This document shows, piece after piece, positions 49,845-50,302 of a DNA stretch of 64,000 nt (the stretch's first letter is position 1; each line of letters opens with the position of its first letter). The position numbers and the translations under genes were made by a program. Below the pieces are notes generated by a model. That model was not told the origin of the DNA and made no database searches. It saw only the letters and a program-made list of their open reading frames with translations. Source of the DNA: Oxalobacteraceae bacterium (GTDB lineage: Bacteria; Pseudomonadota; Gammaproteobacteria; Burkholderiales; Burkholderiaceae_D); contig JAIXYM010000038.1 of the NCBI GenBank assembly GCA_027490255.1, positions 6,233 to 70,232 on the forward strand, in the 5' to 3' direction.

Positions 49845-50302
49845 ACGGCACGGGAGGCCGTAAAAAAAGCTGCACCCGCGTGCAGCTTTTAGGCCGAGCG
49901 CGGTGCGCGCGTTTTCGCGCGCGCCGCATGATGCCGGTTGAAGGTAGCAAAGACTTAGTTCTTCGATTGATCGACGAGTTTGTTCTTTGCAATCCACGGC
50001 ACGGGAGGCCGTAAAAAAGCTGCACCTGCGTGCAGCTTTTAGGCCGAGCGCGGGGTGCGCTTGCAAGCGCATCCCGCATGATGCCGGTTGAACTTAGCAG
50101 GAGCTTAGTTCTTCGACTGATCTACCAACTTGTTTTTAGCAATCCACGGCACGGGAGGCCGTAAAAAAAGCCACCCCTGAGGGTGGCTTTTAGGCCGAGC
50201 GCGGTGCGCGCATTTTCGCGCGCGCCGCATGATGCCGGTTGAAGGTAGCAAAGACTTAGTTCTTCGATTGATCGACAAGTTTATTCTTGGCAATCCAAGG
50301 CA
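49845..50302 (-). repeat. Tandem array (periods 151/150/151 bp) of ilvC 3'-end copies plus two-hairpin spacers
   Basis: The real ilvC end (stop 50256-58) is followed by copies encoding [14 protein letters not shown] with stops at 50105-07 and 49955-57. There are three spacers, each with a 28-nt GC hairpin and a terminator-type hairpin. Confidence 0.97.

Follow-up and report, generated by a model that had tools for sequence, protein, structure and literature searches.

The stretch analysed here, 64,000 nucleotides of Oxalobacteraceae bacterium DNA (GenBank assembly GCA_027490255.1, contig JAIXYM010000038.1, positions 6,233 to 70,232 of the forward strand; hereafter the window), carries directly downstream of ilvC, the gene for ketol-acid reductoisomerase, three tandem units of 150/151 bp, in each of which a copy of the end of ilvC is followed by two hairpins. 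Our preferred reading, held with modest confidence, is that this region is a tandem array of a structured ilvC 3′ module whose copies have multiplied and been reassorted through slippage, unequal crossing-over, and gene conversion. Within the Burkholderiales the module is old and confined to the ilvC locus, and its two hairpins have been kept paired through extensive sequence change.

Architecture of the ilvC array

Tandem Repeats Finder delimits a single array at 49845–50302 (period 150, 3.0 copies, 81% matches), and the 23-mer ACGGCACGGGAGGCCGTAAAAAA occurs three times in the window against zero occurrences expected by chance; the three units can be aligned with one another without ambiguity. 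The ilvC gene (50256–51272, minus strand) encodes a class I enzyme of 338 amino acids, as identified by translation and by the Pfam domains KARI_N and KARI_C, and is the last gene of ilvI-ilvH-ilvC. The product is 93% identical in amino acid sequence to IlvC of Undibacterium spp., which places the organism in the Oxalobacteraceae. The array is neighboured by ilvIHC, two open reading frames (ORFs) without family matches, psd, pssA, and leuA. ORFs that overlap the array (for example 49729–50079 and 50105–50293) are by-products of the repeats.

Read in the sense of ilvC, each unit starts with a 42-nt tail, TGG ATT ... AAC TAA, which comprises the last 14 codons of the gene including the stop codon. 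The tail is followed by a 19-nt spacer, by (C)GGCATCAT, and by a 28-nt GC hairpin; then come GCTCGGCCT, a terminator-like hairpin arranged as A4-stem-loop-stem-T7, and a 16-nt linker, ACGGCCTCCCGTGCCG, which ends in GTGCC and is directly adjoined by the TGGAT of the next tail. In each unit the terminator hairpin is extended by an outer helix. The functional tail, the segment repeated in each unit, is located at 50256–50297 (minus strand). Just 5′ of it, the Met-Met-Pro codons of ilvC, ATGATGCC (50299–50306, minus strand), are complementary to the GGCATCAT of each unit, a pairing that is present in the predicted sense-strand fold, and the TGCC of ATGATGCC recurs at the end of every linker.

The non-coding part of the proximal unit (50147–50255, minus strand; covariance-model match of 105 bits) consists of a spacer that pairs with the tail end (50237–50255), GGCATCAT in the sense orientation (50229–50236), the GC hairpin in the version termed allele a (50201–50228), GCTCGGCCT (50192–50200), the terminator hairpin in the version termed allele 1 with its A/T tracts (50163–50191), and the linker (50147–50162). 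The second ilvC tail, a decoy at 50105–50146 (minus strand), has eight nucleotide changes relative to the real tail, all eight of which are synonymous. It leads into the non-coding part of the middle unit (49997–50104, minus strand; 105.7 bits), with the spacer at 50086–50104, GGCATCAT at 50078–50085, GC hairpin allele b (loop CTTGCAAG) at 50050–50077, terminator hairpin allele 2 at 50013–50040, and the linker at 49997–50012. The third tail, again a decoy with synonymous changes only (49955–49996, minus strand), is followed by the non-coding part of the distal unit (49846–49954, minus strand; 91.8 bits), in which GGCATCAT lies at 49928–49935, GC hairpin allele a at 49900–49927, terminator hairpin allele 2 at 49869–49886, and the linker at 49846–49861. 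The distal linker adjoins a low-GC island without a gap, the array ending in ...CCCGTGCCGT immediately before ACAAG. Overall, the three tails of the window differ at no more than eight positions, synonymously in every case, and 108–110 nt separate one tail from the next.

Conserved pairing of the two hairpins

The terminator stem of the proximal unit reads GCCACCC-CTGA-GGGTGGC (50170–50187), and those of the other two units read GCTGCAC-CYGC-GTGCAGC (49869–49886 and 50019–50036). As the initial annotation had pointed out, these stems are swapped with compensation, three pairs being fully compensated; the flanks on either side do not differ from unit to unit. For the 28-nt hairpin there are two versions, allele a, GCGGTGCGCGC-(A/G)TTTTC-GCGCGCGCCGC (50201–50228 and 49900–49927), and allele b, GCGGGGTGCGC-TTGCAA-GCGCATCCCGC (50050–50077), and the earlier description of the two as equal in length with compensated changes is likewise correct.

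Covariation was assessed in an alignment of 42 homologous units, each less than approximately 93% similar to any other and running from GGCATCAT to the next TGGAT, with pairs counted against one stated structure of 33 pairs, and with 500 column shuffles and slid partners as controls. Of the cells counted, 88.8% are paired, versus 73.4% in the shuffles, while slid partners give 30–56%; none of the 500 shuffles reached any of the observed pairing or covariation measures. Double changes are found in 22 of the 33 pairs, with all seven pairs of the terminator stem, nine of the 11 pairs of the GC hairpin, and four of the nine pairs of the terminator's outer helix being affected. Variants of the outer helix, which flanks the A/T tracts, include GGCC/GGCC, GCCC/GGGC, GGAC/GTCC, GCGC/GCGC, and GGTCG/CGACC. 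The prospect raised in the initial annotation, of a 28-nt hairpin devoid of covariation, is not borne out, and the GC hairpin is therefore a maintained structure. Covariation supports this hairpin, the terminator stem, and its outer helix; it does not support a CGGCA/TGCCG stem.

The latter had been proposed as an outer stem that closes both hairpins into a three-way junction, as part of a fold under selection. The motifs are situated where they had been placed (CGGCA at 50147–50151, TGCCG at 50233–50237), and the pairing of both hairpins has been kept across order-level divergence; the outer stem lacks covariation, and the three-way junction is left unsupported. Its four central pairs are invariant, the flanking pair is unpaired in 19 of the 42 units, and the inner pair is U.G; furthermore, the stem is not formed in minimum-free-energy DNA folds of single units of either strand, in which the linker folds on itself. 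In a related family, CGGCAG with CTGCCG replaces CGGCAT with GTGCCG, a swap which may lend weak backing to some pairing of the CGGCAT motif with the linker.

With respect to the strand on which the fold operates, each version of the 28-nt hairpin has one T.G wobble on the + strand, as had been claimed, which corresponds to A.C on the ilvC-sense strand. The U.G wobble of the outer stem works on the sense strand only, whereas the GC hairpin, at its A.C/G.U position, would pair better on the antisense strand. Among the 42 homologues, 23 of the 37 non-Watson–Crick cells are of the A.C type (G.U on the antisense strand) and nine are G.U, these counts deriving from two alleles only. On the sense strand, one mid-stem position of the GC hairpin is non-Watson–Crick in both alleles, as C.A in allele a and as A.C one step further on in allele b. 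The retained mid-stem mismatch may be a recognition feature or a marker of the functional strand.

By its complementarity to the last nucleotides of the tail, the spacer makes a hairpin with them that holds the stop codon in its loop; it is a degenerate inverted copy of the tail end. Spacer–tail complementarity exceeds that of shuffled spacers (mean z of -1.33, with 35% below -2; 85 distinct units).

Distribution of the module

A covariance model of both hairpins was run on the window and on 80 reference loci of 5–13 kb each, approximately 1 Mb in total, with a cut-off of E < 0.001. Every match is placed immediately downstream of ilvC, in the sense orientation (window, L002, L003, L004, L005, L059, L064, and L065), with no match elsewhere in this ∼1 Mb; nor was the sequence of the first hairpin found elsewhere in the window. 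The module is present in about a tenth of the sampled genomes, and GGCATCAT is kept wherever it occurs. Repeated ilvC tails with the same joint were found in five of 80 Burkholderiales reference genomes, namely Undibacterium Ji49W, Herminiimonas glaciei, an Alcaligenaceae-like metagenome-assembled genome, and two other metagenome-assembled genomes. A metagenome search with a pattern that required two ilvC tails 123–153 nt apart gave 87 contigs, 13 of them with three tails, and 102 distinct units belonging to several families. Some lineages have a second hairpin without the U-tract, and the genes downstream vary between lineages in identity and orientation.

Closer relatives differ in copy number and unit order. 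Ten metagenome contigs encode an IlvC identical to that of the window, with arrays of one unit (L089), two units (L081, L084), or three, and the order of the units is permuted among these strains (T1,T2,T3 in the window versus T2,T3,T1 in L088). Runs of N mark assembly gaps in L003 (∼7252–7349), and in L082 and L085 inside the ilvC array, and the contig ends of L179–L186 fall within arrays. Such repeats break short-read assemblies, hence copy numbers in the databases are lower bounds. In an Undibacterium without GGCATCAT (L001, 7015–7110), GGGCAT, an AT-rich hairpin, and a terminator follow ilvC, below detection by the covariance model; this arrangement may be a diverged solo form of the module.

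Searches of Rfam gave no match at gathering thresholds, the best sub-threshold matches being terminator-like and at most 27 bits, and no description of the ilvC module was found in the searchable literature. Tandem repeats of similar size are otherwise rare: in 1.66 Mb of DNA, the only ones besides the ilvC arrays are one repeat resembling a repetitive extragenic palindrome (REP) and an array at nuoD in the window, described below.

Alleles and the origin of the compensated differences

In the clade of the window, the GC hairpin has two alleles, a (loop GAAAAT) and b (loop CTTGCAAG), the core of allele b being common to Herminiimonas; the terminator also has two, 1 (GCCACCC) and 2 (GCTGCAC). 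All four combinations are found in the clade (a1 in nine cases, b1 in seven, b2 in three, and a2 in two), and since the two sites are only about 25 nt apart, this implies recombination between them. The three units of the window are a1, b2, and a2. Spacer types are also reassorted relative to the tails. The idea that compensation arose between the units of this array is therefore not sustained, because the stem versions are population alleles that occur in all four combinations in other strains; the array of the window instead brings together pre-existing, internally consistent hairpin alleles.

The tails carry a related signal. In the clade there are 17 distinct tail sequences for what is nearly one peptide (15 identical, two with one Leu-to-Met change). 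In 95 distinct real-versus-decoy pairs, compared at the five codons not constrained by the search pattern, there are 66 synonymous and 15 nonsynonymous codon differences, where random change would be expected to give approximately 18% synonymous; the excess indicates that variation in the decoy tails arose under coding constraint. Nucleotide diversity among sequences encoding the same protein is ∼0.085 along ilvC and 0.14 in the tail. Tail type at ilvC itself is associated with the haplotype immediately upstream, TTA-CGG occurring with GCT AAA AAC AAG TT, and TTG-CGG with GCC AAG AAT AAA CT. Such linkage is a prediction of homologous exchange, rather than of tail swapping at a fixed joint.

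Proposed formation of the array

ilvC contains the motif (A/G)TGCC-N-TGG, which recurs at each linker end, so that a unit is bracketed by short direct repeats, both of which are complementary to GGCAT. According to our preferred reading, slippage or unequal crossing-over between these repeats would gain or lose units of tail plus hairpins while leaving ilvC unharmed, and later exchange between whole units would further change the copy number. Gene conversion and homologous recombination would then overwrite parts of units with alleles from the same array or from other strains, as a consequence of which decoy tails would differ from the real tail almost only synonymously, and units would carry differing, internally compensated hairpin alleles. 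Compensation would thus be a record of the long-term maintenance of pairing and not of an event within this array, with the pairing maintained by selection (for termination or for protection of the mRNA 3′ end), by palindrome-correcting template switching, or by both.

Slippage or unequal exchange would yield exactly the joint that is observed, as well as an array in which a final ...GTGCCGT gives way to unique DNA, as it does in the window, whose array end fits a repeat boundary at the TGCCGT direct repeat. The initial annotation had noted that the base of the outer stem coincides with the start of the ilvC copy; CGGCA does abut the second tail copy (50105–50146), but the coincidence has a simpler cause than a junction, because the 3′ strand of the stem, (G)TGCC, directly repeats the (A)TGCC of ilvC and the unit joint lies at that repeat. 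Footprints of such events are found in related arrays: in L128 (∼1600–1900) a unit has been truncated by a deletion between two GCCCTGG repeats, and in L157 (1107–1365), from an AT-rich lineage, an independent, near-perfect duplication of 128 bp with GAG microhomology spans the ilvC stop codon. In L137 (∼1085–1300) an extra tail lies only 58 nt past the first.

The hairpins could alternatively belong to a neutral scar that has no function other than that of the native terminator, in which an ancient direct-inverted-direct rearrangement left tail, anti-tail, and tail, and in which quasipalindrome template-switch correction, not selection, keeps the hairpins perfect. The order of tail, inverted partial tail, and direct tail does fit a remodelled tandem-inversion duplication, and fully compensated changes of several nucleotides within identical flanks are what one-step template switching gives; the lack of a consistent strand preference among the non-Watson–Crick cells, and distal units that appear to be untranscribed, are also in line with a scar. 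However, the persistence of the module in several families of one order, with GGCATCAT and CTCACGTGCC conserved, is difficult to account for in the absence of constraint; useless direct repeats of 150 bp should be lost fast by recombination, and a test of the hairpin region for residual collinear homology to the ilvC coding sequence was negative. We regard a neutral scar as quite improbable.

A derivation of the hairpin region from decayed ilvC codons -50 to -15 was rejected, as collinear similarity past the last 12–24 nt is at the level of the control (0.27 versus 0.26). The linker resembles the Leu-Arg-Ala codons only weakly, and not in the same way from lineage to lineage.

A mirror-image array at nuoD

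A second array of comparable design lies between nuoC (36238–36834) and nuoD (34692–35945) on the minus strand (35910–36238; Tandem Repeats Finder period 145, 2.3 copies, 93% matches). In this case it is the head of the gene that is repeated: after the stop codon of nuoC come the initial 12 codons of NuoD (ATG GCT GAG ... TTT GGC), approximately 109 nt, a second copy of the 12 codons with synonymous changes only and a GTG start, the 109 nt again, and then the real nuoD. The ∼109-nt insert contains two GC hairpins, a Shine–Dalgarno-like GGGAG, and an antisense copy of the head end. The decoy frames stay open across the insert and terminate in a TGA overlapping the start codon that comes next, and the resulting 50-amino-acid decoy ORF has homologues in 50 database clusters. 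Six further loci have the element between nuoC and nuoD, in units of 130–146 nt. The nuoD hairpins covary, as does CCGAA(A/G)TTG, which is complementary to the head end, with a synonymous AAT/AAC site. All contigs that encode the NuoC and NuoD of the window break inside the nuoD array.

The presence of units of like size in two core operons within one 64-kb window is the main reason against regarding the ilvC module as a routine duplicated terminator. It is a tentative suggestion, to which we give a minor share of our confidence, that the ilvC-tail and nuoD-head modules represent an undescribed class of locus-specific gene-end decoy cassettes in the Burkholderiales, in which ∼100–110 nt of covarying hairpins plus an antisense gene end are bracketed by a duplicate of the gene end. 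Were there such a class, the duplicate would allow a cassette to insert into an essential gene or operon, multiply there, and be lost again, all without harm; the cassettes would either be spread by a dedicated guide- or structure-directed or a homology-armed mechanism, or be translation-sensing RNA switches in core operons.

Termination and transcription

The second hairpin of the ilvC module has a GC stem of 7 bp and a 4-nt loop, and lies between an A-tract and a T-tract. On the sense strand GCCACCC-TCAG-GGGTGGC is followed by T7, and on the + strand the same stem is followed by T4, as in intrinsic terminators; from its sequence the hairpin, which separates ilvC from a convergent ORF, would qualify as an intrinsic terminator for both directions. 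In metatranscriptome contigs from rivers and lakes, depth is tens to hundreds on ilvC and 0–4 past the first unit, these being assembled contigs of mixed strains without 3′-end mapping, and none of these contigs covers the ORF of the low-GC island. These depths are suggestive of a working first terminator that ends most ilvC transcripts, which would leave the distal units as largely silent DNA.

Observations at odds with slippage and exchange

Several observations weigh against an array produced by slippage and exchange. A decoy tail accompanies the module in six of the eight module-bearing genomes (the window and the 80 references) and is absent in two, a coupling of module and tail that is tighter than predicted if a native 3′ untranslated region was sometimes duplicated. 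The linker motif CTC(A/C)CGTGCC is more conserved across families than the stems, which suggests that the linker may have a sequence-specific role. The outer helix covaries even though its 3′ strand lies past the U-tract, where it cannot contribute to the intrinsic termination of ilvC transcription. Of 92 arrays, 27 have unrelated sequence right behind the distal tail, with stop codons that also differ, whilst in the remaining arrays similarity ends part-way (15), after the terminator (31), or after the linker (19); in L004 and L059 it ends inside the GGCAT motif. From their sequences, the 27 tail-only arrays look like an insertion of tail plus hairpins into a naive locus. Slippage and exchange can accommodate them if a further event is assumed, such as a deletion or the homologous import of sequence from a donor with an array, and no empty-site relative of the tail-only arrays was found in the available sequences with which to polarise the events. 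Finally, a second locus, nuoD, with the same design and a similar period is not predicted by chance slippage alone. The tail-only arrays, the conservation of the linker, the covariation of the outer helix, and the rarity of the module without a decoy keep two further explanations alive.

The first of these is a translation-sensing cis-regulatory RNA, in which an anti-tail (the spacer plus GGCAUCAU) alternates between the translated real tail with AUGAUGCC and the downstream decoy. Pairing of the anti-tail with the untranslated decoy (GUGCC plus tail) would close a junction that encloses both hairpins. Whether ribosomes occupy the end of ilvC would then determine how read-through transcripts fold and how well the sequence that follows is expressed or how stable it is, and selection would favour arrays as functional devices in several copies or as insulators in a stack. 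The three pairings are mutually exclusive by construction, and such a switch would account for the excess of spacer–tail complementarity over shuffled controls, the conservation of GGCATCAT wherever the module occurs, the CGGCAG/CTGCCG swap in the related family, and the covariation of the outer helix past the U-tract. At nuoD, moreover, the anti-head covaries with the synonymous head site (AU in four cases, GC in three), and the stop of the decoy ORF falls at the start codon of the real gene. The collapse of RNA contig depth after the first terminator, on the other hand, suggests that decoys are rarely transcribed; the outer stem is without covariation in the main family and absent from predicted folds; and the downstream genes differ by lineage in both identity and orientation. 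The element has no Rfam match, and the tail peptide has no more than a single Ile, a single Leu, and a single Val, which sets it apart from the leader peptides known for branched-chain amino acids. A switch of this kind appears unlikely, though it merits serious consideration.

The second is a non-autonomous, locus-specific mobile cassette, an idea close to that of the initial annotation, which had proposed the fold as a recognition site for insertion. A segment of ∼150 nt (tail, hairpins, and linker) would be excised and inserted at ATGCC-N|TGGAT in ilvC (the bar marking the joint) by a structure- or guide-dependent enzyme acting in trans, whether integron-integrase-like, HUH/IS200-like, or another recombinase; GGCATCAT would pair with the left flank of the target, and the surrogate tail would make the insertion harmless. 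Consistent with this, the joint is constant across families, an internal 8-mer complementary to the 8 nt 5′ of the joint is located at the foot of a hairpin, like the guides of IS200/IS605, and the 27 tail-only distal copies resemble a displaced native tail. The near-constant association of module and decoy tail, the patchy distribution (∼10% of sampled genomes), and the nuoD element of the same logic point in the same direction.

Against mobility, a Pfam scan of 44 ORFs of the 64-kb window gave no recombinase, transposase, reverse-transcriptase, or Cas domain. The module was not found outside the ilvC locus in the window and the 80 reference loci, the tie between tail type and upstream haplotype indicates that the functional tail is not swapped at the joint, and module types follow the tail families of their hosts. 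Whereas the left and right ends of IS200/IS605 elements are alike, the two hairpins of the module are not, and an attC GTTRRRY core is absent. When viral contigs were scanned for the ilvC tail, the single match was an unrelated contig resembling Neisseria, with no sign of a phage or island that uses the site, and no second ilvC tail at kilobase distance was found in the 80 loci. The absence of a recombinase, the haplotype linkage, the slippage footprints, and the restriction of the module to ilvC leave the proposed recognition site for insertion unsupported, and we judge a mobile cassette very unlikely.

Comparison with known systems

Bidirectional intrinsic (rho-independent) terminators between convergent genes resemble the second hairpin of the module in their GC stem, A/T tracts, and position, and the drop in RNA coverage past this hairpin is suggestive of a like activity. 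The module differs from ordinary terminators by the addition of GGCATCAT, a second covarying hairpin, the outer helix, and the linker, and by its repetition together with a piece of coding sequence.

REPs and the bacterial interspersed mosaic elements (BIMEs) that they form are GC-rich extragenic palindromes, found in 3′ untranslated regions in variable head-to-tail arrays and implicated in the protection of mRNA 3′ ends; REPs exist as hundreds of dispersed copies and are associated with REP-associated tyrosine transposases (RAYTs). The module is like them in position and array behaviour. In contrast to REPs and BIMEs, every copy in the sequence covered (the 64-kb window and 80 loci of 5–13 kb) follows ilvC, and each unit includes a gene tail; no RAYT or HUH gene is encoded in the 64-kb window.

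With integron attC sites the module shares a structure that is conserved while sequence varies, head-to-tail units, and a fold proposed as the substrate of recombination. Its units differ in being without R′′/L′′-L′/R′ boxes, GTTRRRY core, or cargo gene, and the exchange patterns fit homologous recombination. The core boxes (RYYYAAC ... GTTRRRY) are absent from the units, the nearest string, GTTGAAG, failing the consensus, and no IntI or attI adjoins the array, nor is a recombinase domain encoded in 44 ORFs of the window. The units are also distinct from the palindrome-associated transposable elements (PATEs) derived from IS200/IS605, as their hairpins are unrelated to one another in sequence and length, and only the first has the complement of the joint, GGCAT.

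Elements that bring a surrogate 3′ end of their target gene include e14 and phage 21 in icd and the islands of tRNA and transfer-messenger RNA genes. The likeness lies in a displaced pseudo-3′-end downstream of the functional end, with synonymous differences only; the module differs in having no element body or integrase, approximately 108 nt between copies, and the possibility of three or more copies. Tandem-inversion duplications and quasipalindrome template switching are bacterial replication errors, seen as transient, laboratory-scale events. They share with the array the direct-inverted-direct order of gene ends, hairpins at joints, and microhomology-mediated gain and loss, but the ilvC structure is conserved with covariation across an order.

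Other candidate identities were rejected. ATGCCGGTTGAA resembles the neisserial DNA uptake sequence; it occurs only three times in 64 kb, always in the array, and this identity was therefore dismissed. A diversity-generating retroelement with template and variable repeats, a CRISPR-like array, and a retron were discounted, since the window has no reverse-transcriptase or cas domain and since the tail copies differ by several kinds of synonymous substitution at third positions, not only at adenines.

Neighbouring features

Between the array and psd there is a low-GC (32–43%), strain-variable island (46700–49844, + strand), delimited by composition, which is context and not part of the repeat. 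Its ORFs, 46836–47945 and 48111–49805 (369 and 564 amino acids), are convergent on ilvC, and their products had no Pfam, PADLOC, or NCBIfam match. Strains with an identical IlvC (L081–L089) have at least three unrelated gene sets in the island (552–622 plus 369–427 amino acids), which makes it a hypervariable locus.

Further along, L081 and L082 (∼12.0–12.9 kb) and L084 (7.1–7.9 kb) have a two-gene insertion after pssA, encoding a DUF6036 protein and a 61–95-amino-acid ORF. In the window (44789–45061), leuA comes after pssA and this two-gene DUF6036 insertion is absent. A 30-nt repeat near leuA (44728 and 45036) was judged to be a chance match. A 25-bp tandem repeat, CGGCTTTCCAATCGTCACCCGGGGA (62069–62163; 3.8 copies, 77% matches), lies between the ORFs at 60683–61960 and 62207–63079.

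Significance

The module is a covariation-supported element at the 3′ end of a core biosynthetic gene which is conserved across an order and absent from Rfam. Its arrays vary in copy number and carry a coding piece, such that the silent gene tails form a fossil record of ilvC alleles. A caution follows for the interpretation of repeats in general: compensated differences between paralogous repeats may be imported alleles or products of template switching, and compensation alone is therefore no evidence of a recombination site. The mirror case at nuoD suggests a possible general route by which non-coding modules colonise packed operons while leaving the genes undisrupted; if general, it would bear on the origin of intercistronic regulatory RNA and on the annotation of small hypothetical ORFs.

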